Notes: generated by a model from the sequence alone, not told the origin. Shown: positions 30,796 through 50,294, counted from the first letter of the stretch. The stretch is 60,812 nt of DNA from an uncultured Clostridia bacterium (GCA_947164825.1 CAMUYE010000001.1:1-60812), one strand, 5' to 3'. Translations and numbers: made by a program.

Positions 30796-30807
30796 GCGCG
30801 CACCTCC

Positions 30808-31800: not shown

Positions 31801-31833
31801 GAGGGATTCACACTCTCTTTCATTTGTTTACAG

Positions 31834-31873
31834 CTTAGAAAAGCGCCGATCAGGTTTCACGCGGATCGGCGCT
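31834..31873 (-). terminator. intrinsic terminator/attenuator between the binding-protein gene and the permease genes of operon 2
   Basis: Minus strand: AGCGCCGATC-12 nt-GATCGGCGCT followed by TTTTCT. Two more hairpins lie at 31891-31915 and 31931-31948. Confidence 0.65.
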
Positions 31874-31959
31874 TCTCTATTGGACAGGACAGAGGGGGCG
31901 TATTGCAGCCCCCTCCGGCCTTTGTTTTGTGTGCTGCGTATCAAACGCAGAAATGGAAC

Positions 31960-37182: not shown

Positions 37183-37398
37183 GCGGGCAGATTGCCCGCG
37201 CTGCAGTTCTCATACTGAACTCCCATAGAAACCTTTAATCTGTTTCGGCAGAAATTGTGTCATACTTCGTTGTCGTCCTTGCCGGGCGTCAAGCCCGCCT
37301 GCGTCCTCCGCCTCGTCTGACGCAATTCCTGCACGGAACATTTTTCAATCTTTCTATGGGAGTTCAGTATCAATTCTCAATTTTCAATTCTAAATTCC
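37183..37398. repeat. palindromic core + 7-bp array, interrupted by a MITE-like insertion
   Basis: GCGGGCAGATTGCCCGCGCTGCAGTTCTC [159-bp insert] CAATTCTCAATTTTCAATTCTAAATTCC. The same core GCGGGCAGATTGCCCGCGCTAC followed by a heptad array occurs at 46941-47001. Confidence 0.75.
37212..37370. mobile_element. MITE-like element, 159 bp, 20-bp perfect terminal inverted repeats, no coding capacity
   Basis: ATACTGAACTCCCATAGAAA (37212-37231) is the exact reverse complement of TTTCTATGGGAGTTCAGTAT (37351-37370). The flanks CAGTTCTC (37204-37211) and CAATTCTC (37371-37378) match at 7 of 8 positions as direct repeats. Confidence 0.6.
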
Positions 37399-37435
37399 AA
37401 AAAGGGCCGCTGCTCTTGAAGCAGCAGCCCTTTTT
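37399..37435 (-). terminator. intrinsic (bidirectional) terminator after the KH-domain gene
   Basis: AAAAAGGGCCGCTGCTC-TTGA-AGCAGCAGCCCTTTTT, directly after the stop at 37439. Confidence 0.75.
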
Positions 37436-37438
37436 GGC

Positions 37439-37666
37439 TTAATCTACGATCTCCACGCTGACACGGATGCCCTGGCGCTGCGCCACGGACTTCATAATCG
37501 CGCGGATTTCTCTGGCGATCCGGCCCTCGCGGCCAATGACCTTGCCCATATCCTCGGGGGCAACACGAAGCTCCAGGACCAGGGGGTCGCCCTCATAGGA
37601 CTCCACCGTGACCTGCTCCGGATGCTCCACCAGGTTGCGGGCGATATAGAGCAACAGTTCCTTCAT
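37439..37666 (-). CDS. KH-domain RNA-binding protein (YlqC/UPF0109 family)
   Basis: 75 aa. MKELLLYIARNLVEHPEQVTVESYEGDPLVLELRVAPEDMGKVIGREGRIAREIRAIMKS. Conserved position between rpsP and rimM. Confidence 0.9.
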   Translation of the reverse strand: MKELLLYIARNLVEHPEQVTVESYEGDPLVLELRVAPEDMGKVIGREGRIAREIRAIMKSVAQRQGIRVSVEIVD

Positions 37667-37683
37667 CGTTCAGCCCTCGGTTC

Positions 37684-37923
37684 TTACAGAACGCCGGCCT
37701 TCTTCAGCAGTCCTCTGACAGTATCGGTGGGTTGCGCGCCGTTCTTGATCCAGGTCTGGGCCTTCTCCGCGTCCACGGTGATGGCAGAGGGATTGGCCTG
37801 GGGATCGTAGGTGCCGATCTCTTCGATGCAGCGGCCGTCGCGGGGGCTGCGGGAGTCAGCGACAACAATGCGGTAGTAGGGGTTCTTCTTGGCGCCCATG
37901 CGTCTCAGTCTGATTTTAACCAT
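37684..37923 (-). CDS. rpsP: 30S ribosomal protein S16
   Basis: [41 protein letters not shown].... Confidence 0.97.
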
Positions 37924-37953
37924 GATGATTCTCCTTATTGTTTATAATGATTA

Positions 37954-37995
37954 TTTCATTTTCAACTTTCAATTTTCATTTCAACTTTCAACTTT
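37954..37995. repeat. AT-rich 7-bp tandem array (ATTTTCA/ACTTTCA) between ffh and rpsP
   Basis: ATTTCATTTTCAACTTTCAATTTTCATTTCAACTTTCAACTTTT, abutting the ffh stop codon (37996-37998). Confidence 0.8.
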
Positions 37996-39357
37996 TTACA
38001 TGCCCGGGAAGCCGCCCATGCCTGGGAAGCCGCCGCGCTTCTGCAGCTTTTTCAGTTTCTTGTTGGCTCCCTTGCCGGAGAACTGCTTGATCATCTGCTG
38101 CATGGTCTGGAATTGCTTCAGCAGCTTGTTCACGTCCTCCACCCGGGTGCCGCTGCCGGCGGCGATGCGCTTTTTGCGGCTGGAACCCAGGACGTTGGGA
38201 TTCTCCCGTTCGTAGGGCGTCATGGACCGGATGATGGCTTCGGTGCGGCCCATGGCCTTTTCGTCCACCTGGACGTCCTTCATGGCTCCCATGCCGGGGA
38301 TCATGCCGATGAGGTCCTGGAGGTTGCCCATGTTTTTGAGCTGGTTGAGCTGGTCCAGGAAATCCGTCAGGGTGAACTTGTTCTGGCGCAGGCGCTCCTC
38401 CAGCTCGGCGGCCTTCTTTTGGTCGATGGCCTGCTCCGCCTTTTCGATGAGAGAGAGCACGTCGCCCATGCCCAGGATCCGGCCTGCCATGCGGCCGGGA
38501 TGGAAGGGCTCGATCTGATCCAGCTTCTCGCCCACGCCGATGAACTTGATGGGCTTGCCGGTGACGGCCTTGACGGACAGGGCCGCGCCGCCCCGGGCGT
38601 CGCCGTCCAGCTTGGTGAGCATGACGCCGTCGATGTCCAGCCGCTCGTTGAAGCTCTGGGCAGCGTTCACCGCGTCCTGGCCGGTCATGGCGTCCACCAC
38701 CAGCAGGATCTCCGTGGGCCTGAGCTCGGCCTTGATGGCCTGCAGCTCCTGCATGAGCTTTTCATCCACGTGCAGACGGCCCGCGGTATCCAGGAACACC
38801 ATGTCGTTGCCGTGCTGCTGGGCGTGGCGCAGACTGGCCTTGGCGATCTTCACGGGATCGTCCTGCCCCATCTGGAAAACGGGGATGTCCAGCTGGCCGC
38901 CCACCACCTCCAACTGCTTGATGGCGGCGGGGCGGTAGACGTCGCAGGCCACCAGCAGGGGGCGCTTGTTCTGGGTCTTCTTGAACCAGCCGGCGAGCTT
39001 GGCGCCGTTGGTGGTCTTGCCCGCGCCCTGGAGGCCCACCAGCATCACGATGGTGGGGCCGTTGGAAGCCATGGTCAGCTTCTGGTTCTCGCCGCCCATC
39101 ATGGCGGTGAGCTCCTCGTTGACGATCTTGACCACCATCTGAGCGGGATTCAGACCCTCCAGCACGTCGCTGCCCACGCAGCGCTCCGTGACGGTCTTGG
39201 TGAAGTCCTTGACGACCTTGTAGCTCACGTCCGCTTCCAGCAGAGCCATCTTGATCTCGCGCATGGCCTCCTTGACGTCGGCAGGCGTCAGGCGGCCCTT
39301 GCTCCGCAGCCGCTGAAAGGCGGCGGAGAGCTTTTCAGTTAAGCCTTCGAATGCCAC
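37996..39357 (-). CDS. ffh: signal recognition particle protein
   Basis: GTG start after AAGGAG. GLQGAGKTT, DTAGRL, TKLDGDARGG, and a Met-rich M domain with C-terminal GFPGMGGFPGM. Confidence 0.97.
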   Translation of the reverse strand: MAFEGLTEKLSAAFQRLRSKGRLTPADVKEAMREIKMALLEADVSYKVVKDFTKTVTERCVGSDVLEGLNPAQMVVKIVNEELTAMMGGENQKLTMASNGPTIVMLVGLQGAGKTTNGAKLAGWFKKTQNKRPLLVACDVYRPAAIKQLEVVGGQLDIPVFQMGQDDPVKIAKASLRHAQQHGNDMVFLDTAGRLHVDEKLMQELQAIKAELRPTEILLVVDAMTGQDAVNAAQSFNERLDIDGVMLTKLDGDARGGAALSVKAVTGKPIKFIGVGEKLDQIEPFHPGRMAGRILGMGDVLSLIEKAEQAIDQKKAAELEERLRQNKFTLTDFLDQLNQLKNMGNLQDLIGMIPGMGAMKDVQVDEKAMGRTEAIIRSMTPYERENPNVLGSSRKKRIAAGSGTRVEDVNKLLKQFQTMQQMIKQFSGKGANKKLKKLQKRGGFPGMGGFPGM

Positions 39358-39389
39358 AGGCGCGATCTCCTTTCGTTAGGGTTCGTTTT

Positions 39390-39550
39390 CGGAATTGAAA
39401 ATTGAAAGTTGAAAATTGAAAATGGAGGTGTTTTTCAGATTGCCATCTGAAAAGCAGAAATGAAACCGGCTTGAAAGCTGATCTCTATCTTTTCAGCGTT
39501 CAAATGGCAATTTGAACGATCCCTCAACTTTCAACTATCAATTATCAATT
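39390..39550. repeat. composite element: left array (GAAAATT/GAAAGTT) + two AT-rich hairpins + right array (inverted)
   Basis: GGAATTGAAAATTGAAAGTTGAAAATTGAAAAT ... GGAG..TTTTCAGAT-TGCC-ATCTGAAAA ... GTTCAAAT-GGCA-ATTTGAAC ... CCTCAACTTTCAACTATCAATTATCAATTT. The right array encodes the last residues and the stop of ylxM. Confidence 0.8.
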
Positions 39551-39888
39551 TGCCGCAGAGCCGCCGCAGCGTTCCGGAGGGCTTCTTCCGTTTCCCGCCG
39601 GCTCATATCCTGCAGGGAAGCGGCCAGCGCCTCCAGGCGGGCGGCGATCTGCAGATCCCGGCGCTCCCGGTCCAGGCAGCCCGTGACCTCTTCGTAGCGC
39701 AGAAGCTGAGCCTCGGCCCGGGTCACCGCGTCGTGGATGCCCTGCCGGCTGGTGCCCTGGAGCTCGGCGATCTCCGCCAGGGTCAGGTCCTGGTTGCAGT
39801 AGAGGTCGAAGCAGTCCCGCTGCTTTTCCGTCAGCAGCTCTCCGTAGCAGTCCAGCAGCAGCGCCATGGTCAGCTTGTCCGGTTTCAT
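39538..39888 (-). CDS. ylxM: YlxM/UPF0122 putative DNA-binding protein (sigma-70 region-4-like HTH) preceding ffh
   Basis: Trimmed to ATG 39886-39888. LLLDCYGELLTEKQRDCFDLYCNQDLTLAEIAELQGTSRQGIHDAVTRAEAQL. Confidence 0.88.
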   Translation of the reverse strand: MKPDKLTMALLLDCYGELLTEKQRDCFDLYCNQDLTLAEIAELQGTSRQGIHDAVTRAEAQLLRYEEVTGCLDRERRDLQIAARLEALAASLQDMSRRETEEALRNAAAALRQIDN

Positions 39889-39942
39889 GGGAAGGACCTC
39901 CTTGCGAGAGCATGTCAAGGTCAATTCTTTGACAGCTCGCAC

Positions 39943-39971
39943 AGTATAGCACAGCGCGGGGCGTTTGTCAA
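39943..39971 (-). promoter_or_regulatory. sigma-70-type promoter of ylxM-ffh
   Basis: Minus strand: TTGACA (39971-39966), 17 nt, TATACT (39948-39943). Confidence 0.65.
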
Positions 39972-40040
39972 GGGAAAAAATTTGACAGTTTACGGGTCCC
40001 TGCAGAGAAGCTGACAGTTTGACCGTCTCCTGCCGCCGCC

Positions 40041-40496
40041 TTAATGCAGATCCTCGGGGGTAAGATCCGGGGCTTCGGTGGTGTTCAAGGGGATATCCTC
40101 GCCGCTGTCGTCGGAGGGAACGCCGGACGAAGCGGGTTCGGACGCCGCGGATTCGGAGGGATCGGGATCGGACTGGCCGGGATTGGGCTGGGACGGGTTC
40201 GTCTGATCCTTGTCGGGCTTGCTTTCGCCGGTGCTTTCTCCCGGATCCTTGCCGGGCTGCTCGTCAGAGGCGTCGACCTTTGTGGCCGCGGCGGGATCGG
40301 CGGCAGTGTCGGAAGGCGTATTCTCCTCTCCCTCCTTCGAGTCGTCCGCGGGGCGCTGACTTCCAACGGGATCCGCAATGCCGGGCAGGGTCGCCTGGGG
40401 CTGGCTCTCGTTTTCTCCCTCTCCGCCGCAGGCAGAGAAGAGCGACGCCATCAGCAGCAGCGTCAGCAAAACAGCGATCAGTTTCGAAAGTTTCAT
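40041..40496 (-). CDS. low-complexity secreted lipoprotein (151 aa)
   Basis: Signal peptide plus lipobox LFSAC, followed by a Pro/Asp/Ser/Glu-rich sequence. Confidence 0.6.
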   Translation of the reverse strand: MKLSKLIAVLLTLLLMASLFSACGGEGENESQPQATLPGIADPVGSQRPADDSKEGEENTPSDTAADPAAATKVDASDEQPGKDPGESTGESKPDKDQTNPSQPNPGQSDPDPSESAASEPASSGVPSDDSGEDIPLNTTEAPDLTPEDLH

Positions 40497-40520
40497 AGTT
40501 GTTTCCTCATACTTCTAATT

Positions 40521-40573
40521 TGTGCTTGTTGCTTGTTCTTCCGGCGCGGCGGCCTGAGGTCAGGCCGCCCTAC
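40521..40573 (-). repeat. GTAG-headed REP with adjacent short heptad array; its GTAG supplies the stop codon of the upstream gene
   Basis: Minus strand: GTAG GGCGGCCTGA-CC-TCAGGCCGCC GCGCCGGAA GAACAAG CAACAAG CACA. The TAG of GTAG (40570-40572) is the stop of CDS 40570..40779. Confidence 0.8.
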
Positions 40574-40779
40574 GGGCGGTCCTTTCGGGGCAGGGGCCGT
40601 TTGTTCCCCTTTTCGTCCACAAGCCAGGTGTGGTCCAGCTGGCCGGTCAGGCTGGCCTTGACCGCTGCGATGTATTCCTTGCGCAGCGCGTCCCGTTCGG
40701 CGATTTCCGCCTCGGTCAGCCCCTCGGCTTTGGCCTTCCGGGCCAGGACGTTGATGCGGTCGATTTTTTCCTGCTTCAT
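40570..40779 (-). CDS. DUF896 (YnzC/UPF0291) family protein
   Basis: MKQEKIDRINVLARKAKAEGLTEAEIAERDALRKEYIAAVKASLTGQLD.... Confidence 0.85.
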   Translation of the reverse strand: MKQEKIDRINVLARKAKAEGLTEAEIAERDALRKEYIAAVKASLTGQLDHTWLVDEKGNKRPLPRKDRP

Positions 40780-40799
40780 AATAATACCATCACAACTTA

Positions 40800-42575
40800 T
40801 TATCCAACCGCGTTGGAAACGGTTTTTATGACCTTCATGGTCTCCGGGTCGGTGACGCAGACCTCGCCGGGGCTGCAGATATAGAGAATGCCGTTCAGAA
40901 GCAGGGCCCGGGCGTCGGCAGGGACGTATTCCAGCTGGAAGGAGCCGTTGATCCGGAGCTTGGAGCCGTCCCAGGCGGCCAGCAGGTATTCGTTCCCGTT
41001 TTTCCCGGCTGTGGGGAAGCCGATGAGGCCGTTGACGGGATCGGTGAAAAAGGCGCCGGGATCCGAGAGGGAGGCCGTGGGGGCGTGCCCGCCCAGGTTC
41101 AGACTGGCCGCTTTGACCGGTTCGGCGGGGTCCGTCACGTCGTAGACCGCCAGCTCCCAGTCCTCCCCTTCCCCGGGCTCGGAGATGCCGAGGACACAGC
41201 CCTCCCCGAAGGACCGCAGCAGCAGGGTCTCCCCCGGGCAGGACAGGCTCCCGCTGGGGGCGGGGCGGGCGGGATCGGCGAGGTTCGCCAGGTAGACCGC
41301 GGCAGCGTCTCCCGCCGTGATCCAGGCCAGGCCGCCCACGAAGCGGCAGGCCCCGGCGTTTTGCTCTCCGCCCAGGGCGGTCAGGGCGCCGGTCACGTTC
41401 AGATCCCCGTCCAGCAGGGACAGGGCGGCGCTCCGGTTCAGGGAATGGAGCTCGTAGTTGGTCCAGCCATGGTTTTCGTCGGTGTAGGCCGAGAAGCTGC
41501 GGCTGTCCTTCTGGGTGAAGAGGCCGAGGCCGCTGCTCAGAAGCTCCAGAGCCGAAGGATCGGACAGGGCGCCCTCCAGGACGCAGCCGCCCTCCAGCCG
41601 GAGCTGATTGTTCTCCAGCCGGAGCTTCCGCAGCTCGGTCCGGGCCGCAGTGTCATAGTCCACGACCGTGTAAGGGGCCTCCTGCCGGGGGGCGGAGGCG
41701 GTCTCGGACCAGATCGTCCGGGCCAGCCAGAGGCAGTCGCCCGACGGGCGAACGGCGTCCACGCCGTCGGTAAAGGCCAGAGCGTCGGCGATCCGACCGT
41801 CGGAGAGCCGCACCGCGGCCGCGACGGTCAGGGCCGTCCGGGCCGGTTCGGGGGCGATATAGACGTCTCCTGCGGTCAGGCGCAGCTCCTTGCCGTTCTC
41901 CCAGAGCCGGGGCAGCAGCTCGTCGCCGGTTTCGGGCAGGGCCGACAGGGTCCGCCGGGTCACCAGGCAGAGGGTCCCGTTCAGCAGACAGGCCTCCGTC
42001 AGGCTCCCCTCCACAGCGGTCTCGGCCAGCAGAAGCGGCGCGTTTTTGTCGGACAGGTCCAGCAGGATCACCCGGGTCTCCGCGGCGTTGTACAGGGCCT
42101 CGCCGTCTTCGCCGGTCTCAGAGACCGAGCACACCACGGCGGCCCGGTCCCCCTCCACGTAGAGCCGCTCGGACCAGCCGCTCCCGCCCCGGTCCACCCG
42201 GGTGTAGGAGAGGATCTCGCTGTCGGCCCCGGCGGCGGAGCAGACGATCAGGCCGTAGCGGTCCAGCATGTACAGATAGGAGCCGTCCGTCGCCGCCGTA
42301 TCCTCGTCGGGTCCGGCGTCGGCGGCCAGCCGAAGCCGGGGCGCGGCCTCGGCCTCGCCCGCCCAGTCCGGAGCCAGGGTCTGGCCCACGGCGGAGAGGG
42401 AGGCCAGGACGGCCTCGGCGTTCCCCGCGGGGATCAGGGTCCCCAGGGGCTGCCGCTCCACACTCCCCCGCTCGGCAAAGAGGGATTCCCCCGCCGATTC
42501 GGGCTTCTTGCCGCAGGCGGTAAACAGCCCGGCCAGGAGGCAGAGGGCCAACAGCAGGCAAAGTGTCTTTTTCAC
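40800..42575 (-). CDS. secreted beta-propeller-domain lipoprotein (591 aa)
   Basis: GTG start after AAAGGAGGAA, lipobox LFTAC. TDGSYLYMLDRYGLIVCSA... and repeated strand-rich blocks fit the bacterial Beta_propel family. Confidence 0.7.
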   Translation of the reverse strand: MKKTLCLLLALCLLAGLFTACGKKPESAGESLFAERGSVERQPLGTLIPAGNAEAVLASLSAVGQTLAPDWAGEAEAAPRLRLAADAGPDEDTAATDGSYLYMLDRYGLIVCSAAGADSEILSYTRVDRGGSGWSERLYVEGDRAAVVCSVSETGEDGEALYNAAETRVILLDLSDKNAPLLLAETAVEGSLTEACLLNGTLCLVTRRTLSALPETGDELLPRLWENGKELRLTAGDVYIAPEPARTALTVAAAVRLSDGRIADALAFTDGVDAVRPSGDCLWLARTIWSETASAPRQEAPYTVVDYDTAARTELRKLRLENNQLRLEGGCVLEGALSDPSALELLSSGLGLFTQKDSRSFSAYTDENHGWTNYELHSLNRSAALSLLDGDLNVTGALTALGGEQNAGACRFVGGLAWITAGDAAAVYLANLADPARPAPSGSLSCPGETLLLRSFGEGCVLGISEPGEGEDWELAVYDVTDPAEPVKAASLNLGGHAPTASLSDPGAFFTDPVNGLIGFPTAGKNGNEYLLAAWDGSKLRINGSFQLEYVPADARALLLNGILYICSPGEVCVTDPETMKVIKTVSNAVG

Positions 42576-42602
42576 GCGCTTTCCTCCTTTCGGGGGAGTT
42601 CA

Positions 42603-42711
42603 TAAGTAAGAAGTAAGAAGTAAGAAGCAGGAAGTAAGCGGACAAGCGATGCTTGTCCCTACATTATAATTCTCAAGATAATTCTCATTTCTCACTTCTC
42701 AATTCTCAATT
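42603..42711. repeat. composite element: (GAAGTAA)n array + GTAG-headed REP + (AATTCTC)n array
   Basis: TAAGTAAGAAGTAAGAAGTAAGAAGCAGGAAGTAAG C GGACAAGC-GAT-GCTTGTCC CTAC ATTATAATTCTCAAGATAATTCTCATTTCTCACTTCTCAATTCTCAATTG. Confidence 0.85.
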
Positions 42712-42751
42712 GAAAAAGCTCCCCATGCAAGACGGGAGGCCCTGCATGGGG
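42712..42751 (-). terminator. intrinsic terminator after ispH-rpsA
   Basis: Minus strand: CCCCATGCA-13 nt-TGCATGGGG followed by AGCTTTTTC. Confidence 0.75.
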
Positions 42752-42767
42752 AACGGAGAATGTACGC

Positions 42768-44837
42768 TTACTGGGCCTCGACGGTCTCAGCGACCTCTTC
42801 CACAGCCTCGGCGGCGGGCTCGGCGGTCTCGACGACGGCCTCGGCGGCCTCCTCAGCCAGAGCCTTGGCCTGCTCCTCCACGGTGGGATTCAGCAGGGCG
42901 CGGATGGACAGGGAGATGCGCTTGTTCTCGGCGTCGATGTCGATGATCTTGGCGTCCACTTCCTGACCGACGGTCAGCACGTCCTCGGGCTTGGCAATGC
43001 GGCGATCCGCGATCTGGGAGATGTGGATCAGGCCGTCCACGCCGGGCACGATCTCGGCGAAGGCGCCGAAGGTCATCATCTTCACGACCTTGACCTTGGC
43101 CACGTCGCCCACGTTGTACTTGGCGGTGAACTGGTTCCAGGGGTTCATCTCGGCGGTCTTGTAGCCCAGGGAGATCTTGCGCTTCTCGGGATCCAGGGCG
43201 ATGACGTAGACGTCGATGACGTCGCCGACCTTGACGACCTCGGCGGGGTTCTTGATCCGCCGCCAGCTCAGCTCGGACACGTGAACCATGCCGTCCACGC
43301 CGCCGATGTCCACAAAGGCGCCGTAGGAAGTCAGGGACTTCACAACGCCGGTGTACTTCTTGCCGACCTCGATCTCGGACCAGATCTTCTCCTGCGCGGC
43401 CTTGCGCTCTTCGTTGGCCACGGCGCGGATGGAGCCCACCACGCGGCCGCCGCGGCGCTCGCGGTTGACCTCAGTGATGCGGACCTTCACGGTCTGACCC
43501 TTCAGTTCCTCCAGGTTGCCGCCACGGGCCACGCCGGAAGCGGAAGCGGGGATGAACACCCGGACGCCCTTGACGTTCGCCACCAGGCCGCCCTTGTTGG
43601 TCTCGGTGATTTTGGCTTCCACGGGAGTTTTGTTGTCGGCTGCTTCCTGCAGCTCGTCCCAGACGCGCATGCCGTCCAGCTTCTTGCGGCTGAGCTGAAC
43701 AGTGCCCTCCTGGTCGTTGACGCGGACGACGAAAACCTTGATCTCGTCGCCGACGTGGAGCACGTCCTCAGGCTTGACGTTGGGGTCCGCGCTCACTTCG
43801 TCACAGGGGATGTATCCGGCGTGCTTCGTCCCAAGGTCAACCTGGACTTCGGTGGTGCCGATGGCGACGACTGTACCTGTGACCGTATCTCCTGTGTTTA
43901 GAGTTTTGATACTTGCGTCCAGCAGCGCCTCAAAGCTTTCCTCCGTCGTTGCAGCAGTATCTGTAGTTTGGACTTCCTCCACTACTGTTTTGATTTCATC
44001 CATGGTTTGATTGACCTCCTTTATTATCCACGCAGGCGTCGATGCCCCTGCGGTGATGCCGATGGTATGAATGCCTGAAAAATCGCAGTCCGCCAGCTCG
44101 GCGGCGTTGTCCACCGCGAAGACCCTTCCGCAATGGGCCCTGCAGATGGCGGCCAGCTGTTTGGTATTGGAGCTGGTCCGGTCGCCGACTACGATCATGG
44201 CGTCGCTCTGCGCCGCCAGAAGAGCGGCAGCAGTCTGCCGATTTTCAGTCGCTTCGCATATTGTATCAAAAGTTTTGCAATTTGTACAGAGCGAATTTGC
44301 AATTTCTTCAACTTTTTTCCACAAATTTTGATTGGAAGTGGTCTGCGCGGCCAGTGCCAGGGGCTGATTTCGACGTTCGGGGGCCTCTTTCAGCCAGCGT
44401 TCCAGCTCTTCGGGGCTCTCCACCACCACTGGCTCGGCGCACCAGCCGCAGATCCCCACCACCTCGGGGTGGGTCCTTGTGCCGAAAATCACAGGCCTGC
44501 GGCCCTCGGCCTCGGCCATGCGAACCAGCTTGTGAATCCGCTCCACAAAGGGACAGGTGGCGTCCACCACGGCCAGCCCCCGGGCCTCCAGGGCCTCGTA
44601 GACGTCCCGGCCCACACCGTGGGCCCGGATGATGACCGCGGCGCCTTCGGGGACTTCGGCCACATCGGAGACCTCCCGGACCCCCAGGGCCCGGAAGCGC
44701 TCCACCACGTGCCGGTTGTGGACGATGGGCCCCAGGGTCACCACGGGCCTGCCCTCAGCGGCGGTCTTCTCCACGAGCTCCACCGCCCGGCGGACGCCGA
44801 AGCAGAAGCCGGCGTTTTCCGATAATGTCACTTTCAT
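42768..44837 (-). CDS. ispH: bifunctional 4-hydroxy-3-methylbut-2-enyl diphosphate reductase / ribosomal protein S1 fusion
   Basis: Trimmed to ATG 44835-44837. The N-terminus MKVTLSENAGFCFGVRRAVE...GPIVHN is IspH/LytB and the C-terminal half has four S1 OB repeats (e.g. GTVVAIGTTEVQVDLG, GVVKSLTSYGAFVDIG). I recall this fusion as common in Clostridia. Confidence 0.9.
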   Translation of the reverse strand: MKVTLSENAGFCFGVRRAVELVEKTAAEGRPVVTLGPIVHNRHVVERFRALGVREVSDVAEVPEGAAVIIRAHGVGRDVYEALEARGLAVVDATCPFVERIHKLVRMAEAEGRRPVIFGTRTHPEVVGICGWCAEPVVVESPEELERWLKEAPERRNQPLALAAQTTSNQNLWKKVEEIANSLCTNCKTFDTICEATENRQTAAALLAAQSDAMIVVGDRTSSNTKQLAAICRAHCGRVFAVDNAAELADCDFSGIHTIGITAGASTPAWIIKEVNQTMDEIKTVVEEVQTTDTAATTEESFEALLDASIKTLNTGDTVTGTVVAIGTTEVQVDLGTKHAGYIPCDEVSADPNVKPEDVLHVGDEIKVFVVRVNDQEGTVQLSRKKLDGMRVWDELQEAADNKTPVEAKITETNKGGLVANVKGVRVFIPASASGVARGGNLEELKGQTVKVRITEVNRERRGGRVVGSIRAVANEERKAAQEKIWSEIEVGKKYTGVVKSLTSYGAFVDIGGVDGMVHVSELSWRRIKNPAEVVKVGDVIDVYVIALDPEKRKISLGYKTAEMNPWNQFTAKYNVGDVAKVKVVKMMTFGAFAEIVPGVDGLIHISQIADRRIAKPEDVLTVGQEVDAKIIDIDAENKRISLSIRALLNPTVEEQAKALAEEAAEAVVETAEPAAEAVEEVAETVEAQ

Positions 44838-44865
44838 TCTCTGTCGGTTCCTCTCCCGGATTCGG

Positions 44866-44954
44866 ATGAAGTATCGTTTTATTCTGCGAATAAAACGATG
44901 AATGATGAATAATGTAAGATATGGCGAAGCCATACTTCATATGCGAAGCATACT
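44866..44954. repeat. AT-rich composite palindromic element between plsC and ispH
   Basis: ATGAAGTAT CGTTTTATTC-TGC-GAATAAAACG ATGAATGATGAATAATGTAAGAT ATGGC-GAA-GCCAT ACTTCAT ATGCGAAGCATACTTCA. The outer arms ATGAAGTAT and ATACTTCAT are inverted. Confidence 0.7.
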
Positions 44955-45611
44955 TCACGCCTTCCCCAAGGCATAGATCTTCTTCATCAGCTCCGCGGTC
45001 TTCTCTTCCAGCTCCGCGGCGTCGGGGCGGCTGCAGCTCCAATCCGGGGTATAGGCCTCGCCCATGATAACCTTGACGGGCCGGAAGGGCTTGCGGCCAT
45101 GGGTGATATAGACCGGCACCACAGGCACGCCGGTCCGCTGGGCCAGCATCACCGCGCCGGATTTGGGCTCGGATTTTTTGCCGTTTTTGACGCGGGTGCC
45201 CTCGGGGAAGATCAGCAGCTTCTCCCCGTTCTTCAGCACCGACAGCGACTTCTTGATGGCGGGCAGATCCACATTGTCCCGGTCCACCGGGAAAGCCCGG
45301 AAGGCTGCCAGGAAGCGGCCCAGAACCGGTTTTTCCATGACGGATTTCTTGGCCATGGTCCAGGGCGGGAGCCGGGTCCGCATCAGCAGGAAGACCCAGA
45401 GCGGATCTGCAAAGCCGGAATGGTTGCCGCAGATTACGCAGGGACCCTCCGGAAGATTTTCCCGGCCCCGGAAGGTCGGCCAATGGTACAGGCAGAGGAA
45501 GAAGCCGATCAGATCTCGGAAAAAGCGATACAAATGCTTGACGGCGAAACCCCTGCCGGGTTCGGCCTTCTTTTTGGCCGGGCGGGTCGTCAGTTCAGTC
45601 TGGCTTGCCAT
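44955..45611 (-). CDS. plsC: 1-acyl-sn-glycerol-3-phosphate acyltransferase
   Basis: Trimmed to ATG 45609-45611 (TAATG overlap with the cmk stop). NHSGFADP (HX4D) and FPEGTR motifs. Confidence 0.85.
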   Translation of the reverse strand: MASQTELTTRPAKKKAEPGRGFAVKHLYRFFRDLIGFFLCLYHWPTFRGRENLPEGPCVICGNHSGFADPLWVFLLMRTRLPPWTMAKKSVMEKPVLGRFLAAFRAFPVDRDNVDLPAIKKSLSVLKNGEKLLIFPEGTRVKNGKKSEPKSGAVMLAQRTGVPVVPVYITHGRKPFRPVKVIMGEAYTPDWSCSRPDAAELEEKTAELMKKIYALGKA

Positions 45612-46291
45612 TACGGCTGCACCTTCTTCCGAATAATGGCCTTCATCTCGGCCACCACCTGGTCGATGGTCAGATAGGAGCAGTCCAGAAGCTCCGCGTC
45701 GTCGGCGCACTTCAGGGGGGCGATCTTCCGGTTCATGTCCTGCTCGTCGCGCTTCACCACGTCGATGTAGACGTCCTCATATTTGACGTCCTGGCCCTTG
45801 GCGAGCAGCTCCTTCCAGCGGCGCTCGGCCCGGACCTCGGCGGAGGCGGTGAGGTAGACCTTGACAGTGGCGTCCGGCAGCACCACGGTGCCGATGTCCC
45901 GTCCGTCCATCACCACGTTGTGGGTCCGGGCCAGCTCCCGCTGCATATCCAGCAGATAGGCCCGGACGCAGGGCTGGGCCGAGACGCCCGAGGCCATCAT
46001 GGACATCTCCGGCGTGCGGATCAAATCCGTCACGTCCTGGCCGTTGAGGATCATGTGCTGGATCCCGTCATCCCGATACTCGATCTGGATGTTCACGTCG
46101 TCGATGCAGCGCTCGATGCCGTCCTTGTCCTTCGGGCCGATGCCCATGAGGCTCATGTGATAGCCCACGGTGCGGTAGATGGCCCCGGTGTCCACATAGA
46201 GCCAGCCCAGCTCGGCGGCCACCCGCTTGGCGATGGTGCTCTTCCCCGCCCCGGCGGGCCCGTCAATCGCCACAGATACGTATTTGTCCAT
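45611..46291 (-). CDS. cmk: cytidylate kinase
   Basis: Trimmed to ATG 46289-46291 (AGGAGG upstream). VAIDGPAGAGKSTIAKRVAAELGWLYVDTGAIYR. The 25 upstream ORF codons are heptad-array read-through. Confidence 0.93.
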   Translation of the reverse strand: MDKYVSVAIDGPAGAGKSTIAKRVAAELGWLYVDTGAIYRTVGYHMSLMGIGPKDKDGIERCIDDVNIQIEYRDDGIQHMILNGQDVTDLIRTPEMSMMASGVSAQPCVRAYLLDMQRELARTHNVVMDGRDIGTVVLPDATVKVYLTASAEVRAERRWKELLAKGQDVKYEDVYIDVVKRDEQDMNRKIAPLKCADDAELLDCSYLTIDQVVAEMKAIIRKKVQP

Positions 46292-46305
46292 ATGTACAAC
46301 CTCCT

Positions 46306-46375
46306 GTGAAGTGAGAAGTGAGAATTGAGAAGTGAGAAGTAAGATGTAAGATGTAGGGACAAGCATTGCTTGTCC
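46306..46375 (+). repeat. heptad array (GTGAGAA/TTGAGAA/GTAAGAT) + GTAG-headed REP
   Basis: GTGAAGTGAGAAGTGAGAATTGAGAAGTGAGAAGTAAGATGTAAGAT GTAG GGACAAGC-ATT-GCTTGTCC. The same REP stem occurs at 42640-42662. Confidence 0.85.
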
Positions 46376-46385
46376 GCAGCTTGAC

Positions 46386-46898
46386 CTAAGGCAATTCCTC
46401 GATATATACGATCACGTTGCGTCCGAAGAACTCTGTATAGCCGATTTTCAGATGCTGGCCGTCACCGGTGATCACGCCGCCGAGGGATCTGGCGTTGTGA
46501 TAGCCGGATTGACTCTCAAAATCGCTGTATGCAAAACAGACGCCGTTGATCGTAAAGGATTCCCTGGCGTGTCCCGTTGCCGGCATGGGGTCAAACTCCG
46601 TTACGTATCCCTCCACCGTCTGATACTCGCCCCGTTGATAGGCTCCGACTGTGGCCTGATACATAGCGGCGTGGTAGAAGATAAGTATCGCTGTGAAAAG
46701 CGCAAGCTGGATCGCAAGACCTCCGCTGAAGATCATTCCGATCTGAATTCCGGTCTTCGAGACGCGGTCTGCAGCGGAATCCCGTTTCTTTTTTACAAAG
46801 ACGAGGAAGGCGATCAGGCTGGCGAAAAAGAGAAGCGGTACAACCAGAAGCGCAAAATCAAGCTCAAAGGCCGCCTCGTATAATACACGCGGTTCCAT
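46386..46898 (-). CDS. hypothetical 2-TM membrane protein with C-terminal soluble domain (170 aa), locally low GC
   Basis: Trimmed to ATG 46896-46898 (AAAGGAGAG upstream). MEPRVLYEAAFELDFALLVVPLLFFASLIAFLVFV.... Confidence 0.55.
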   Translation of the reverse strand: MEPRVLYEAAFELDFALLVVPLLFFASLIAFLVFVKKKRDSAADRVSKTGIQIGMIFSGGLAIQLALFTAILIFYHAAMYQATVGAYQRGEYQTVEGYVTEFDPMPATGHARESFTINGVCFAYSDFESQSGYHNARSLGGVITGDGQHLKIGYTEFFGRNVIVYIEELP

Positions 46899-46940
46899 GA
46901 AAAGCTCTCCTTTCGGTTCGGCGCAAAAGTCAGCAGACAT

Positions 46941-47001
46941 GCGGGCAGATTGCCCGCGCTACATTGTCTCCTGTCACTTGTCACCTGTCACCTGTCACTT
47001 G
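46941..47001 (-). repeat. GTAG-headed REP + (GTGACAG/GTGACAA) heptad array; array overlaps the 3' end of the flavoprotein gene
   Basis: Plus strand: GCGGGCAGATTGCCCGCGCTAC ATTGTCTCCTGTCACTTGTCACCTGTCACCTGTCACTTG. On the minus strand the array encodes ...SDR-TGA of CDS 46988..48361. Confidence 0.85.
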
Positions 47002-48361
47002 CGGCAGCGTTGGCCGCGGCGTACGCCGTCGCCCACGCGATCTGCAGGTTGAAGCCGCCGGTGTAGGCGTCCACGTCGATGACTTCCCCGGCGAAGTAGA
47101 GGCCGGGGACCAGCTTGCTCTCCATGGTCTTCGGGTCGATCTCCTTCACCGACACGCCGCCGGAGGTGACGATAGCCTCCTCCACCGGGCGCAGGCCGGA
47201 GATTTTGACGGTAAACTGCTTCGTCAGTTCCAGAAGGCTGCGGCGCTGTTCCTTGGTGACGGAATTCACCTTCGTGTCGCCGGGGATGCCGGAGCGCTCC
47301 ACGATCACCGGGATCATGGTCTTGGGATAGAGCCCCGAGAGGGCGTTCTCGAAGCTGCGGTTTTTGGCCGCGGCGAAGTCCCGCAGGATCCGGGCGTCCA
47401 GGGTGGCCTCGTCCAGGGCGGGCTTCAGGTCTATCGAGATTATGTAAACCTTGTCCTGCTCCATGTGGGCCGAGGCCGAGAGGATCACCGGCCCGGAGAG
47501 GCCGAAGTGGGTAAAGAGGAGTTCGCCGAATTCCTCGTAGACGGGTTTTCCGACGGCTCTCGCCCGGGTCGTCCCCTCATCCGTCGGCTGCGCCGACACC
47601 TTCCCCCCAGGGGGAAGGCTTTCATACAGCCGCAGGTTGACGTTTTTCAGGGCCAGGCCCTGCATGCGGGCGCACCAGGGGCCGTCCTCCACCAGGGGCA
47701 CCAGGGAGCCCACGGGGGGAACGATGGTATGGCCCAGGGCCTTTGCCATCCGGTAGCCGTCGCCGGTGGAGCCGGTGGCGGGGTAGGATTTGCCGCCGGT
47801 GGCCAGGATCACGGCGGGGGCATGGAAGTCGCCCCGGTCCGTGCGGACGCCGGTGACAACGGGGGACGGGGGATACGGATTGCCACGACCAGTCTGCGGA
47901 CTGGTCTCGCAATGACAGGATCGGGACGTTTCTGCCGCAGGAGGCGCGGTCAGGATCTCCTTGGCTCTTGCGCGGCGGAGCTCGACCCCGGCGTAACCCA
48001 GGGCGGTTTTCAGGGCGTCCACCACGGAGGCGGACTTGTCGGACACCGGGAAGACCCGGTTCCCCCGCTCGGTCTTGGTCTCGCAGCCGTGGGACTCGAA
48101 AAATGTGATCGCGTCGGCGGGGGTGAAGCCCGAGAGGACGGAATAGAGGAAGCGGGGGTTCCGGGGGACGTTCTTCAGGACCTCCTGCCAGGAGCAGTCG
48201 TTGGTCAGGTTGCAGCGTCCCTTGCCGGTGATGTAGAGCTTTTTGCCCAGCCGCTCGTTGGGCTCCAGCAGCAGGACCTTTGCCCCGGCATAGCCCGCCT
48301 GGATCGCGGCGAACATCCCCGCGGCGCCGCCGCCCACTACGATAACGTCGTATTCATTCAT
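46988..48361 (-). CDS. HI0933/YhiN-family NAD(P)/FAD-dependent oxidoreductase with two in-frame palindromic insertions
   Basis: Trimmed to ATG 48359-48361. MNEYDVIVVGGGAAGMFAA (GxGxxG)...GLYFAGEVIDVDAYTGGFNLQIAWATAYAAA. It is 457 aa, versus roughly 400-420 aa as I recall for this family. Confidence 0.85.
   Translation of the reverse strand: MNEYDVIVVGGGAAGMFAAIQAGYAGAKVLLLEPNERLGKKLYITGKGRCNLTNDCSWQEVLKNVPRNPRFLYSVLSGFTPADAITFFESHGCETKTERGNRVFPVSDKSASVVDALKTALGYAGVELRRARAKEILTAPPAAETSRSCHCETSPQTGRGNPYPPSPVVTGVRTDRGDFHAPAVILATGGKSYPATGSTGDGYRMAKALGHTIVPPVGSLVPLVEDGPWCARMQGLALKNVNLRLYESLPPGGKVSAQPTDEGTTRARAVGKPVYEEFGELLFTHFGLSGPVILSASAHMEQDKVYIISIDLKPALDEATLDARILRDFAAAKNRSFENALSGLYPKTMIPVIVERSGIPGDTKVNSVTKEQRRSLLELTKQFTVKISGLRPVEEAIVTSGGVSVKEIDPKTMESKLVPGLYFAGEVIDVDAYTGGFNLQIAWATAYAAANAAASDR
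47575..47622 (+). repeat. double-hairpin element (family of 4078-4134) inside the flavoprotein CDS
   Basis: CCTCATCCG GTCGGC-TGC-GCCGAC ACC TTCCCC-CCAG-GGGGAA GGCTTT. Translated on the minus strand as ...SLPPGGKVSAQPTDEG.... Confidence 0.7.
47877..47916. repeat. nested palindrome inside the flavoprotein CDS
   Basis: GGATTGC CAC GACCAGTC-TGCG-GACTGGTC TC GCAATGAC. The stem-loop CCAGTNTGCGNACTGG also occurs at 4090-4107. Translated as ...SCHCETSPQTGRGNP.... Confidence 0.65.
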
Positions 48362-48375
48362 AAAGGTTTTCCTCT

Positions 48376-48477
48376 GAATTGAGAATTGAGAGTTGAGAAT
48401 TGAGAATTTTCGGAGTTTCGCAAATTGCAATTTGCGAAACACATCCATTTTCAATTCTCAATTCTCAGTTCTCAATT
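48376..48477. repeat. composite element: (GAATTGA)n array + GGAG + perfect 26-nt palindrome + inverted (ATTCTCA)n array
   Basis: GAATTGAGAATTGAGAGTTGAGAATTGAGAATTTT CGGAG TTTCGCAAATTGCAATTTGCGAAA CACATCC ATTTTCAATTCTCAATTCTCAGTTCTCAATTG. The right array encodes QLRTEN-TGA of rluB. Confidence 0.88.
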
Positions 48478-49171
48478 GCCGCAGTTCCGCCTCAGTCAGA
48501 TATCGCCATTGCCCCGATTTCAGGTCGCCCAGGGAGATCGGGCCTTCGGCGATGCGCTGGAGGCGGGTGGTCTTCAGGCCCGCGGCCTCGGCCATCCGCC
48601 GGATCTGGCGGTTCCGTCCCTCGTGGATGGTAATCTCCAGCAATGCCGTTCCGTCACGCTGCCACATCAATCGCAGCTCCGGCGCTTGGATGCTTCGGCC
48701 ATCCAGGACGATGGGGCGGCGCAGGAGCGCGAGGGCGCCTTCGTGCCAGCCGGAGACCCAGAGACGGTAGGTTTTGCGGACCTCCCCGGCGGGGTGGGTC
48801 AGGCGCTGGGCCAGGGCTCCGTCGTTGGTCATCAGCAGCAAGCCCTCGGAGAACTGATCCAGCCTGCCCACGGGGTAGAGCCGCCCCAGCGCCGGGGGCA
48901 GGAGCTCCGCAACCGTTTGGCGGCCCTTCTCGTCGGAGAGGGTGGTGACGACGCCCCGGGGCTTGTAGAGCAGCACGGTGACCGTCTCGGCGGGAACGGC
49001 GGGCAGGGGCTTGCCGTCGATCAAAACCAGGTCGGTCTCCGGATCCGCCGTATCGCCAAGGCGGGCAAGGCCTCCGTTCACGGTGACCTTGCCCTGGACA
49101 ATCCATTCCTCCGCACGCCGCCGGGAACAGAGCCCCGCAGCGGAGATTATCTTCTGAACACGTTCTTTCAT
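48458..49171 (-). CDS. rluB: pseudouridine synthase, RsuA/RluB family (S4 domain + catalytic domain)
   Basis: MKERVQKIISAAGLCSRRRAEEWIVQGKVTVNG (S4)...YPVGRLDQFSEGLLLMTNDG (catalytic Asp motif). Confidence 0.9.
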   Translation of the reverse strand: MKERVQKIISAAGLCSRRRAEEWIVQGKVTVNGGLARLGDTADPETDLVLIDGKPLPAVPAETVTVLLYKPRGVVTTLSDEKGRQTVAELLPPALGRLYPVGRLDQFSEGLLLMTNDGALAQRLTHPAGEVRKTYRLWVSGWHEGALALLRRPIVLDGRSIQAPELRLMWQRDGTALLEITIHEGRNRQIRRMAEAAGLKTTRLQRIAEGPISLGDLKSGQWRYLTEAELRQLRTEN

Positions 49172-49192
49172 TTCTTTTTGTTCTTGCGATAT

Positions 49193-49294
49193 GAAGTTGA
49201 AAGTTGAGAATTAAAAATTGAAAGTGATCGGAGTTTTGCAGATTGCAATCTGCAAAACACATTCATTTTCAACTTTCAACTATCAATTTTCAAC
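49193..49294. repeat. composite element homologous to 48376-48477
   Basis: GAAGTTGAAAGTTGAGAATTAAAAATTGAAAGTG ATCGGAG TTTTGCAGATTGCAATCTGCAAAA CACATTC ATTTTCAACTTTCAACTATCAATTTTCAAC. The right array supplies the dacB stop (TGA, 49290-49292). Confidence 0.88.
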
Positions 49295-50294
49295 TGGCGG
49301 GTGGCCAGGAAACGGGCACCTCGGCGACGCATTTGCCGTTCAGGTACACTTTGACCGTACCGGCGTGGGGAAAATCCGGGACGTAGACCAGGCGGGGCTC
49401 CTCTCCGGGAGCGAGGGAGAGCGTCAGATCCGCCTGCGCGATCAGGGTCAGGTCACCGACCCGCATGATCGGCTGGCCTTTGACCGCCGTCTGCTCCTGC
49501 CGGAATTGGGCGAAGCCCCAGTCCAGCAGGGCCATGTGGTCCTGCCAGTCGGCGGGATCGTTGACCGTGACGCAGATCAGGGTCCGGCCCTCCCGCTCCG
49601 CCGCGCTGACCAGGAGCCGCCCCGCCGCCCGGGTATACCCGGTCTTCACCCCGATGCAGCCGGGGCAGCGCCAGAGGAGCTTATTGTGGTTGGTCAGCAT
49701 CCGATCCCCGGACACGACAGCCGTCTTCGCGGCGGCGATGCGCCGGAACTCCGGATTCTGCAGAGCCGCCGCCGTCAGCAGGGCCAGATCCCGGGCGGAG
49801 CCGTAGTTGCCCTCCTGATCCAGGCCGTGCGGGTTGGCGTAATGGGTGTTTTGCAGGCCGAGCCTGCGGGCTGCTTCGTTCATGCGATCCACGAAGGCCG
49901 TCTCGCTGCCCGCCGTGTCAATGGCCAGGGCCAGGGCGGCGTCGTTGCCGGAATGGAGCATGGTGCCGAGAAGCAGCTCCTCCCGGGTCAGGGTCTCCCC
50001 TTCCTGCAGGTACAGAGACGAGCCCTCCACCCCCACGGCCTCCGGGGGGACGGTCACGGGACGGTCCAGATCCCCGGCCTCACAGGCCAGCCAGGCTGTC
50101 ATGATCTTTGTGGTGGAGGCGATCAGCCCGGGATCGTCCGGGTGCCGGGACCAGAGCAGCGCTCCGGTGTCGGCGTCCATCAGCACGCCGCGTCCTGCGG
50201 AGACGGAAGGCGCGGCCTCAGCGGCGGCCGCGGGCAGGCAGAGACTGCCGACAGCGAAAAGGAGTGCCGTCAGCAGAAAGAAAAGTCGTTTCAT
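49290..50294 (-). CDS. dacB: D-alanyl-D-alanine carboxypeptidase (peptidase S11, PBP5-type)
   Basis: Signal peptide and SxxK active site (ASTTKIMT), SGN (HSGND), KTG (VKTGYT). The dacB assignment rests on its position next to scpA/scpB and rluB, as I recall for Bacillus. Confidence 0.8.
   Translation of the reverse strand: MKRLFFLLTALLFAVGSLCLPAAAAEAAPSVSAGRGVLMDADTGALLWSRHPDDPGLIASTTKIMTAWLACEAGDLDRPVTVPPEAVGVEGSSLYLQEGETLTREELLLGTMLHSGNDAALALAIDTAGSETAFVDRMNEAARRLGLQNTHYANPHGLDQEGNYGSARDLALLTAAALQNPEFRRIAAAKTAVVSGDRMLTNHNKLLWRCPGCIGVKTGYTRAAGRLLVSAAEREGRTLICVTVNDPADWQDHMALLDWGFAQFRQEQTAVKGQPIMRVGDLTLIAQADLTLSLAPGEEPRLVYVPDFPHAGTVKVYLNGKCVAEVPVSWPPAS

Follow-up and report, generated by a model that had tools for sequence, protein, structure and literature searches.

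We analysed a 60,812-nt stretch of DNA from an uncultured Clostridia bacterium (GCA_947164825.1 CAMUYE010000001.1:1-60812; ~0.6 GC), hereafter the window, in which a family of elements made of heptanucleotide tandem repeats and palindromic cores occupies spacers between housekeeping genes. The elements were studied by sequence comparison, folding and pattern scans. Gene calls placed all genes from ~13.7 to 52 kb of the window on the minus strand, and Pfam profiles run on ~45 window open reading frames (ORFs) matched YlxM, a KhpA-type KH protein, RimM, TrmD, an IspH-S1 fusion, a PlsC-type acyltransferase, Cmk, a HI0933-like flavoprotein, a RluB-type pseudouridine synthase and a D-Ala-D-Ala carboxypeptidase. 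Ffh and RpsP were named from the precomputed Pfam families (SRP54 and Ribosomal_S16) on contigs of near-identical strains. The gene names and co-directional neighbours given in an earlier reading of the sequence alone (the original prediction) proved essentially right, with every gene that flanks an element on the minus strand. SpoIIID, YtfJ and CotH identify the source organism as a sporulating Firmicute. An exact-protein look-up of RpsP returned 10 metagenome contigs, whose sample names suggest ruminant-gut metagenomes; look-ups of Ffh, RluB and a 184-aa ORF by exact protein gave no matches. Repeat families of the window are shared with an Oscillospiraceae metagenome-assembled genome (MAG) from sheep rumen (L026).

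The period of the repeats was determined with Tandem Repeats Finder (TRF) and with our own self-match scan over periods 4-12. The latter detected nine arrays of period 7, none of periods 4-6 or 8-11 and one of period 12. TRF reported period-7 arrays beginning at 37370, 37954, 39393, 39524, 42604, 42680, 46308, 46965, 48376, 48447, 49194 and 49267, together with GC-rich CCTGTTG arrays of 4.4 copies at 14198 and 51663. A three-heptad pattern (TTGARANTTGARANTTGARA, at most one mismatch) matched the window 14 times against 0.00 expected from dinucleotide-preserving shuffles, and a pattern for the complete composite matched four times, again against 0.00. The arrays therefore have the marks of intergenic heptanucleotide tandem repeats (long simple sequence repeats, LSSR, or short tandemly repeated repetitive sequences, STRR): exact 7-nt head-to-tail units, at least three copies and over-representation. 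Their GC content is 0.16-0.35 (0.52 for the GTGACAG array), and the unit differs from place to place within the one genome (TTGAGAA, GTAAGAA, GTGACAG, ACAATTG, GGCAACA). The AT-rich arrays are limited to 37-49 kb and lie in spacers in every case; the ~30 remaining spacers of the window contain none.

On the minus strand, which is that of the mRNA, a full element consists of a stop codon, (TTGARAN)3-5, a short flank, a perfect palindrome, a second short flank, (NTYTCAA)3-5, a ribosome-binding site and a start codon, and owing to its overall palindromic form the other strand reads alike. The original prediction had named ten such composites, and all ten sites proved to exist, with AT-rich tandem heptads at the listed coordinates (Table 1). 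The composite anatomy was borne out, as was the grading of heptad variants into one another, of which the arm of E4 provides a one-step series (GAATTGA > GAAGTGA > GAAGTAA > GATGTAA > GATGTAG). Four of the ten, however, are full composites, in which inverted arms stand on either side of a core (E1, E2, E6, E8), three are half elements (E3, E4, E10) and one is an array alone (E9), and the sequences at 40523-40573 and 44866-44954 fit the scheme loosely. Because the spacers separate co-directional genes, the elements are plausibly transcribed, as had been proposed; they are not all internal to operons, since two of them follow canonical terminators, one after rpsA (E6) and one after the KH gene (E10).

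Table 1. Positions and parts of the heptad elements, of the insertion nested in one of them and of their GC-rich counterparts in the window. TRF, Tandem Repeats Finder; MITE, miniature inverted-repeat transposable element.
Feature	Position	Strand	Location	Description	Detected by
E1, full composite	49194-49295		D-Ala-D-Ala carboxypeptidase gene / rluB spacer		TRF, pattern, fold
E1 5' arm	49267-49295	minus		TTGAAAR x4; contains upstream stop codon 49290-49292	
E1 core	49233-49258			perfect 26-bp palindrome GTTTTGCAGATTGCAATCTGCAAAAC; flanks CGGAG and CACATTCA	
E1 3' arm	49194-49225				
E2, full composite	48376-48477		rluB / HI0933-like flavoprotein spacer		TRF, pattern, fold
E2 5' arm	48447-48477			contains rluB stop codon 48458-48460	
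E2 core	48415-48440			palindrome GTTTCGCAAATTGCAATTTGCGAAAC	
E2 3' arm	48376-48408			stops 14 nt short of start codon at 48361	
E3, half element	46941-46998	minus		(GTGACAG)n arm 46965-46998, flavoprotein stop codon 46988-46990 inside	
E3 hairpin	46941-46962			GTAG then GCGGGCAATCTGCCCGC; 3' of arm on minus strand	
E4, half element	46308-46375	plus	upstream of cmk	arm 46308-46355	
E4 hairpin	46353-46375			arm runs into GTAG + GGACAAGCATTGCTTGTCC	
E5	44866-44954		plsC / ispH-rpsA fusion spacer	separate sub-family, loose fit	
E6, full composite	42604-42711		after rpsA terminator, before beta-propeller gene		TRF, fold
E6 5' arm	42680-42711	minus		TTGAGAA/GTGAGAA	
E6 core	42640-42662			GTAG + hairpin GGACAAGCATCGCTTGTCC	
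E6 3' arm	42604-42638			reverse complement of GTAAGAA; beta-propeller ribosome-binding site next	
E7	40523-40573		DUF896 / 151-aa ORF spacer	marginal member, 2 heptads only	
E7 heptads	40523-40537			TGCTTGT x2	
E7 hairpin	40548-40573	minus		GC-rich GTAG hairpin GTAGGGCGGCCTGACCTCAGGCCGCC	
E8, full composite	39393-39550		ylxM / ffh spacer	two cores	
E8 5' arm	39524-39550			contains ylxM stop codon 39538-39540	
E8 cores	~39497-39519 and ~39424-39456			unlike hairpins, both with ATTGC-type centre, ~40 nt apart; latter headed GGAGGTG	
E8 3' arm	39393-39423				
E9, single arm	37954-37995	minus	ffh / rpsP spacer	TTGAAAG/TTGAAAA, ~5 copies on mRNA strand	
E10, half element	37183-37397		KH gene / rimM spacer	hairpin GCGGGCAGATTGCCCGC 37183-37199; arm 37370-37397	
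Nested MITE	37215-37367		splits E10	153 nt; terminal inverted repeats CTGAACTCCCATAGAAA / TTTCTATGGGAGTTCAG; flanked by TA on both sides (TA duplication)	
GC-rich counterpart	14119-14228	minus	in frame, MetRS linker	(GGCAACA)4, GGGGAC, then GTAGGGGCCGATGCCCACATCGGCCC	
GC-rich counterpart	51630-51693	minus	in frame, ScpB C-terminal tail	(GGCAACA)n, GGGGAC, then GTAGGGGCGGCCATTGGCCGCCC	
GC-rich REP-like hairpin	36951-37031		in frame in rimM	GTAGGG + perfect palindrome	

Turnover of the elements was followed at two depths, in the 10 metagenome contigs with identical RpsP and in an unbiased set of 80 loci (799 kb) around relatives of Ffh. Among near-identical strains the ffh-rpsP spacer measures 60, 67 or 72 nt, corresponding to 3, 4 or ~5 heptads, a further spacer length pair in the strains with identical RpsP is 180 versus 187 nt, and the 5' arm of the ylxM-ffh element is one heptad shorter in four contigs (L001, L003, L005, L007). 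The whole-heptad differences that the original prediction had suggested looking for thus exist, and copy number changes between strains in the 7-nt steps typical of LSSR/STRR. In the wider set, period-7 arrays were found only in the three closest relatives, whose Ffh is 89-91% identical; there were none in locus L133 (Ffh 88%) and none in ~750 kb from relatives with 75-83% Ffh identity. This mainly intergenic, sporadic and lineage-specific distribution is likewise that of LSSR/STRR. The ffh-rpsP spacer is a plain 40 nt in L133, holds heptads only in L131, a full composite in L132, L134 and L010, and a single arm in the window, and the core at this site is flipped in L010 relative to L132 and L134. 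L132 also carries ~16 heptads in a spacer that is only 20 nt long in the window. One composite, ~85% identical between copies, occupies non-orthologous sites: the ffh-rpsP spacer of L132, L134 and L010, E1 and E2 of the window, two places in L026, and L215. The last is a 61% GC contig classed as viral (IMGVR_UViG_3300033463_009252), in which the core family of the window (GATTCGCAAATAGCAATTTGCGAAACACATTTA) stands between TTGAAAG arms at 4671-4752; this contig could be a prophage, or else a fragment from the same clade that was misclassified. Relatives that lack the elements, or have different ones at the same spacers, show on this comparative evidence that the housekeeping operons do not need them and that the elements are apparently dispensable.

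The cores fall into two groups, AT-rich perfect palindromes of 26 bp flanked by CGGAG and CACAT, and GC-rich units of GTAGGG plus hairpin. A scan for tetranucleotides heading perfect hairpins substantiated the GTAG or GGAG that had been noticed in front of the cores: GTAG occurs 11 times in 60.8 kb (0.18/kb, versus 0.03/kb in distant relatives) and GGAG seven times, with control heads giving 1 (CTAC), 1 (ACGT), 3 (GATC) and 6 (GCAG) sites in the window. Repetitive extragenic palindromic (REP) units carry a GTAG head. The cores share with REP sequences and with REPINs, their inverted doublets, a conserved GTAG-type tetranucleotide 5' of a palindrome; they are not strictly extragenic, since GC-rich GTAG hairpins lie in frame in metG, scpB and rimM. 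The hairpins of metG and scpB are accompanied by (GGCAACA)4 arrays, the MetRS-linker array is also present in L026, and rimM is ~66 nt longer in the window than in L133. One and the same 120-nt GC-rich repeat pair is also found at 769-887 and 2060-2183 and in L026.

An indication of the level at which the cores are maintained comes from their substitutions. Across eight copies the 11-bp stem is 98.9% paired, three pairs have changed on both sides, and there are no one-sided changes to G-U. Since G-U pairs should be acceptable in an RNA helix, the restriction to compensatory Watson-Crick changes shows, as far as the aligned copies go, a palindrome whose symmetry is kept at the DNA level. This bears on a rival explanation, that the elements are cis-acting RNA hairpins in which AU-rich arm duplexes of 20-40 bp would be cut by RNase III, block exonucleases or couple translation, the number of heptads tuning the neighbouring cistrons. 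The predicted folds of the composites are indeed very stable (-42.7 kcal/mol, z -8.2 for E1; -46.3, z -8.1 for E2; -35.2, z -4.8 for E6; -52.6, z -6.5 for E8), and four elements include the stop codon of the upstream gene within their 5' arm (49290, 48458, 46988, 39538). Both in the window and in other phyla, elements extend from the stop codon almost to the ribosome-binding site, as seen when species representatives of GTDB were scanned with the composite pattern (at least 120 stretches), and in L268, a contig from the viral collection, (TTCTCAA)n abuts the ATG starts of six consecutive genes on the sense strand. There are published precedents in Coxiella, where an intervening sequence has heptameric repeats at an RNase III site (PMC4990558), and in H. 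influenzae, for which 7-nt repeats with an RNase III-targeted 5'-untranslated region are reported (PMC12721329). However, the RNA of half elements and of single arms has no structure, the orientation of the core relative to the gene is not fixed, and orthologous spacers can do without the elements and are hypervariable in them. Folding showed no advantage for the sense over the antisense strand, either across phyla (17 versus 20, among the matches listed) or in the clade (4 versus 3), and together with a core free of one-sided changes this led us to reject selection at the RNA level. Searches with Rfam families gave no match at the gathering threshold, an E-value search gave sub-threshold hairpin-like matches only, and no tRNA or known RNA family was found. 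Overall, a role as RNA devices is a credible but unlikely account.

Transcription signals were examined as well. It had been pointed out that period 7 places GAGAAT 17 nt after TTGAGA, a weak -35/-10-like pair; on a further rival explanation, the arrays would be weak internal operon promoters of the sigma-70 type. The formal periodicity stands, with 18 promoter-like sites in the window versus 2.3 expected and most of the 9/12 sites inside arrays, but no sign of promoter function accompanies it: only two sites exceed 9/12, both outside arrays, and the 9/12 matches within arrays are produced by the period itself. Promoters in a composite would also fire towards each other, and the elements are absent from the same spacers in relatives. 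Promoters of Bacteroidota differ from the sigma-70-type pattern, and the same arrays occur there. We consider the promoter explanation almost certainly wrong, and rejected it. A terminator reading was likewise discarded, because the cores lack a GC-rich stem followed by a U-tract; only the core at 49233-49258 was flagged, and 4 of its 11 stem pairs are G-C. The true terminators (42718-42754 and 37406-37428) are canonical, separate and upstream of the arrays.

The explanation that we favour, with a little more than even confidence, is that the elements are dispersed REP-like palindromes whose arms were built by 7-nt slippage; as DNA they would be selfish or neutral, and their transcription as long hairpins would be incidental. 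The family would be one of lineage-restricted, fast-evolving palindromic intergenic repeats, with a small REP-like core headed by G(T/G)AG and arms of heptanucleotide microsatellite. Its arms would lengthen and shorten by replication slippage in 7-nt steps; the whole-heptad variation itself is seen between strains, and slippage is its probable cause. Comparison of loci shows that a composite or its core can be copied to new spacers, inverted or deleted; candidate agents would be strand switching templated by the hairpin, recombination of one arm with a similar one, or an enzyme acting in trans, whether RAYT-like (REP-associated tyrosine transposase) or of another kind. The palindrome is held symmetrical at the DNA level, as its exclusively Watson-Crick compensatory changes show. 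Elements would persist only where they are tolerated, from the upstream stop codon to the next ribosome-binding site, with the arms probably expanding to these functional boundaries. A TTGA heptad repeated with period 7 supplies each reading frame with a TGA over a span of 21 nt, and the 5' arm can therefore replace the last codons and the stop of the upstream gene. In mRNAs the elements would ride along as long hairpins, any effect on the mRNA being a side effect. The in-frame GC-rich copies in the MetRS and ScpB linkers fit, as expected, insertions that are tolerated wherever they are harmless.

Several observations weigh against this explanation. Among the matches listed from the GTDB scan, TTGARAN composites occur in more than 10 phyla, among them Acidobacteriota, Bacteroidota, Verrucomicrobiota, Planctomycetota, Chloroflexota, Desulfobacterota, Patescibacteria, Fibrobacterota and Firmicutes, in hosts of 34 to 69% GC, which leaves room for a function or a shared mobile ancestor. 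Their arms are mostly far longer than the two copies that the pattern requires, and their centres differ. As judged by a crude gene caller, 37 of the 47 resolved elements lie between co-directional genes and the distance from an element to either ORF is usually 0-20 nt; another 63 period-7 arrays of many other units are present at these loci, several as inverted pairs. The arms have a fixed polarity, with TTGARAN pointing inwards on either strand, and polarity is not predicted for a palindrome that is purely structural or neutral. In viral contigs, 17 stretches had this polarity and were mostly true arrays; the reverse polarity, sought with a looser pattern, was found in 14 stretches, for the most part chance matches in MAGs of giant viruses with 21-25% GC, so that the reverse arrangement is essentially absent. 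The AT-rich arrays are gathered in one 12-kb housekeeping region, in the window and L132 alike. Lastly, Pfam scans of the ~45 window ORFs revealed no transposase, including those of the RAYT/Y1 type. Fixed polarity, recurrence across phyla and clustering keep the rivals alive. The same census disposes of a worry attached to the original prediction, that the arrays might be absent elsewhere: related elements exist at other loci of L026 as well as in these many phyla.

One alternative takes polarity and recurrence as its starting point. TTGARAN inverted arrays might be cross-phylum, actively generated intercistronic modules, in which a hairpin-recognising enzyme or a hairpin-stalled polymerase would build arms of fixed polarity at palindromes, and whose AU-rich stems would act as RNase III or coupling devices, like mRNA intervening sequences. 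If so, the polarity, the placement from stop codon to ribosome-binding site in more than 10 phyla and the occasional small ORF between arms would be designed features; we give this proposal a low probability.

The polarity of the arms, which run from outside to inside as terminal inverted repeats do, also suits non-autonomous transposable elements of the MITE or REPIN kind. Here either the heptad arrays would be terminal repeats or the G(T/G)AG hairpin would be the recognition site of a RAYT/Y1- or DDE-type transposase encoded elsewhere, slippage coming later. The same composite at non-orthologous sites and in related genomes, the enrichment of GTAG-headed perfect hairpins and the small ORFs sometimes found between inverted arrays (46386-46940 in the window; an S23p-like ORF in locus L108) are consistent with such a history. 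In contrast, the arms obscure the ends of the composite, which prevents a target-site duplication from being defined, and an autonomous partner was not observed; a tblastn search with an approximate IS200-type TnpA query in 3.06 Mb of loci, a weak test, also found none. Drifting, intergrading heptads argue against a strict binding site, and the side of the array relative to the GTAG hairpin is inconsistent outside the clade: a rule placing the array 5' of GTAG, which we tried and dropped, holds for the few half elements here, but in other phyla one array lay on the 5' side only versus eight on the 3' side only. Transposition of this kind is distinctly unlikely to be the explanation. A possible association with ORFs for small four-helix-bundle proteins resembling S23p, the intervening-sequence protein of 23S rRNA, was set aside because only three such ORFs were present in 3 Mb, two of them adjoining arrays, which is too few to count. 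At 5734-6240 of L108, an S23p-like ORF lies between inverted GTGCTGA/TCAGCAC arrays, and between ABC ATPase and permease genes; in L100, an S23p-like ORF (2259-2555) adjoins a TTGARAN composite (2564-2671).

Directional heptads in convergent arrangement could also be arrays of DNA-binding sites, with a nucleoid-associated or ribbon-helix-helix-type protein on consecutive 7-bp units. The omega repressor of plasmid pSM19035 binds heptad arrays. The elements form AT-rich islands inside a GC-rich genome, TTGARAN recurs in many phyla, and the paired repeats of Geobacter have been proposed as sites for IHF/HU (PMC2700814). Against a fixed binding site speak the five different units within one genome, the variation of copy number and presence between strains, and core half-sites that change together, which suits structure over a fixed protein specificity. 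Moreover, in viral contigs (TTGAGAA)3 was found in 61 stretches versus 10 and 41 for two composition-matched control heptads. We therefore rejected the idea that TTGAGAA is a uniquely favoured unit; as control heptads form arrays too, heptad arrays belong to a general class and are not a single specific site of binding. An explanation by binding arrays appears very unlikely.

The original prediction had not recognised a described repeat family. This is true of the sequence family itself: the literature that could be searched contained no AT-rich TTGARAN family, palindromic core with conserved flanks, fixed arm polarity or presence in many phyla, and a search for the literal repeat strings gave nothing relevant. 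It is not true of the class, since heptanucleotide intergenic repeats, including convergent inverted pairs between same-direction genes, are already published (PMC4692102, PMC2700814, PMC4679880). Xanthomonas has ~185 GGGAATC arrays, 89-93% of them intergenic and mostly between same-direction ORFs near the upstream one, with 70-75 cases per genome of two convergent arrays on opposite strands that are capable of forming a stem-loop; array length varies between related species, most arrays are transcribed and 83% are common to two species (Rehm et al, 2015, PMC4692102). These authors noted that there was no detailed literature on heptanucleotide repeats at that time (PMC4692102). The four full composites (z -4.8 to -8.2) are convergent inverted heptamer pairs of this type, and they resemble those of Xanthomonas in their 7-nt units, their position between ORFs and their polarity, with the G-containing strand following stop codons. 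They differ in being built of AT-rich TTGARAN units in a GC-rich Firmicute, so that ideas about G-quadruplexes do not apply, in the conserved palindrome, headed by G(T/G)AG, that separates the arms, and in their much faster turnover between close relatives. In Geobacter metallireducens, pairs of 3-5 tandem hepta- or octanucleotide repeats lie on opposite strands at variable distance in intergenic regions such as proB-proA; they are absent from its sister species and were read, untested there, as sites for the global regulators IHF/HU (Aklujkar et al, 2009, PMC2700814). Opposite-strand tandem pairs in spacers and restriction to a species are common to both systems, whereas the Geobacter units are MTYCTGA and GTTGCTYN and no palindromic core has been described.

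Cyanobacterial STRR heptamers and the TAACTGA repeats of Beggiatoaceae, Cyanobacteria and Bacteroidetes (MacGregor, 2015, PMC4679880) are over-represented, sporadic and intergenic, often just upstream of starts, and differ between strains by 7-nt indels (PMC4679880). Heptanucleotides are, according to Mrazek et al (2007) as quoted in that paper (PMC4679880), the most abundant long simple repeats, sporadic in distribution, with polymerase slippage proposed. Intergenic heptanucleotide arrays, 7-nt steps and explanation by slippage are features in common; unlike the elements described here, those arrays are mostly direct (with one indirect repeat in BOGUAY), consist of other units and have no hairpin core. 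REP sequences, bacterial interspersed mosaic elements (BIMEs) and REPINs are mobilised by RAYT transposases (Bertels & Rainey, 2011, PMC3116915). The present elements resemble them in having GTAG followed by a palindrome, in being extragenic and repeated, in forming inverted doublets as long hairpins and in lying between co-directional or convergent genes. They differ from REPs in their microsatellite arms, in the copies that are in frame within genes, in AT-rich cores that carry GGAG rather than GTAG, and in that no RAYT gene was found among the window ORFs or by the approximate-query search of 3.06 Mb. In Nostoc, small dispersed repeats were reportedly described by Elhai and colleagues in 2008 as hairpins with compensatory changes inside tandem heptameric repeats; the flanking arrays are said to be direct, not inverted, and an RNA intermediate to have been proposed.

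The main value of the locus is as a well-resolved series for how heptad arrays arise and whether long intercistronic hairpins act. Among strain-level and species-level relatives, the conserved ylxM-ffh-rpsP-KH-rimM operon offers a compact series of spacers that are empty, hold arrays alone or a full composite, have the core flipped, or keep one decayed arm, which makes testable the origin of the arrays (slippage or enzyme), the reason for arm polarity and the fate of operon mRNAs. The same inverted-arm TTGARAN design fills gene-to-gene spacers across phyla among the matches listed. On the practical side, such elements break short-read assemblies and mislead ORF callers.

Further features concern single elements. 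On the mRNA strand E4 reads as (TTCTCAC)n immediately 5' of an AGGAGG ribosome-binding site, and a 184-aa predicted membrane protein (46386-46940) lies exactly between the oppositely oriented half elements E3 and E4. This ORF has no Pfam or NCBIfam match and a GC content at third codon positions of 0.62 versus 0.8-0.9 in neighbouring genes, and it may be an inserted gene. E5 combines units of ~18 nt, in which GAAGTAT is joined to a mini-hairpin, with a 12-bp hairpin and a pair of GATGAAT heptads; in L009 the ffh-rpsP spacer holds a 277-nt inverted array of E5-type units (1120-1396). A sub-threshold match to Gut-1 RNA (RF01706; 28.4 bits versus a gathering score of 50) covers 44919-44974, extending past the end of E5. 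E9 abuts the ffh stop codon and is unstructured as RNA. The arm of E10 comes after the KH terminator, and the 153-nt insertion that splits this element is, from its sequence, a clear MITE that looks like those of the IS630/Tc1 type; it is present in L003 and L006, and the same site is empty in the near-identical L002 and L004.

In L268 (IMGVR_UViG_3300026159_000618; 58% GC), the six arrays are (TTCTCAA)3-5, spread over 8.5 kb (1708-8197), all on the sense strand and abutting starts without a Shine-Dalgarno sequence, and AATCTGCG-type repeats lie beside some of them. Elsewhere in the window, two Opp-type ABC transporter sets (17351-34338) encode unusually long proteins (OppC of 748 aa, OppB of 529 aa, binding proteins of 760 and 792 aa). 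Tandem repeats with periods of 15, 30 and 42 are found inside them at 29675-29713 and 34154-34256, and insertions of low complexity into the coding regions are suspected.

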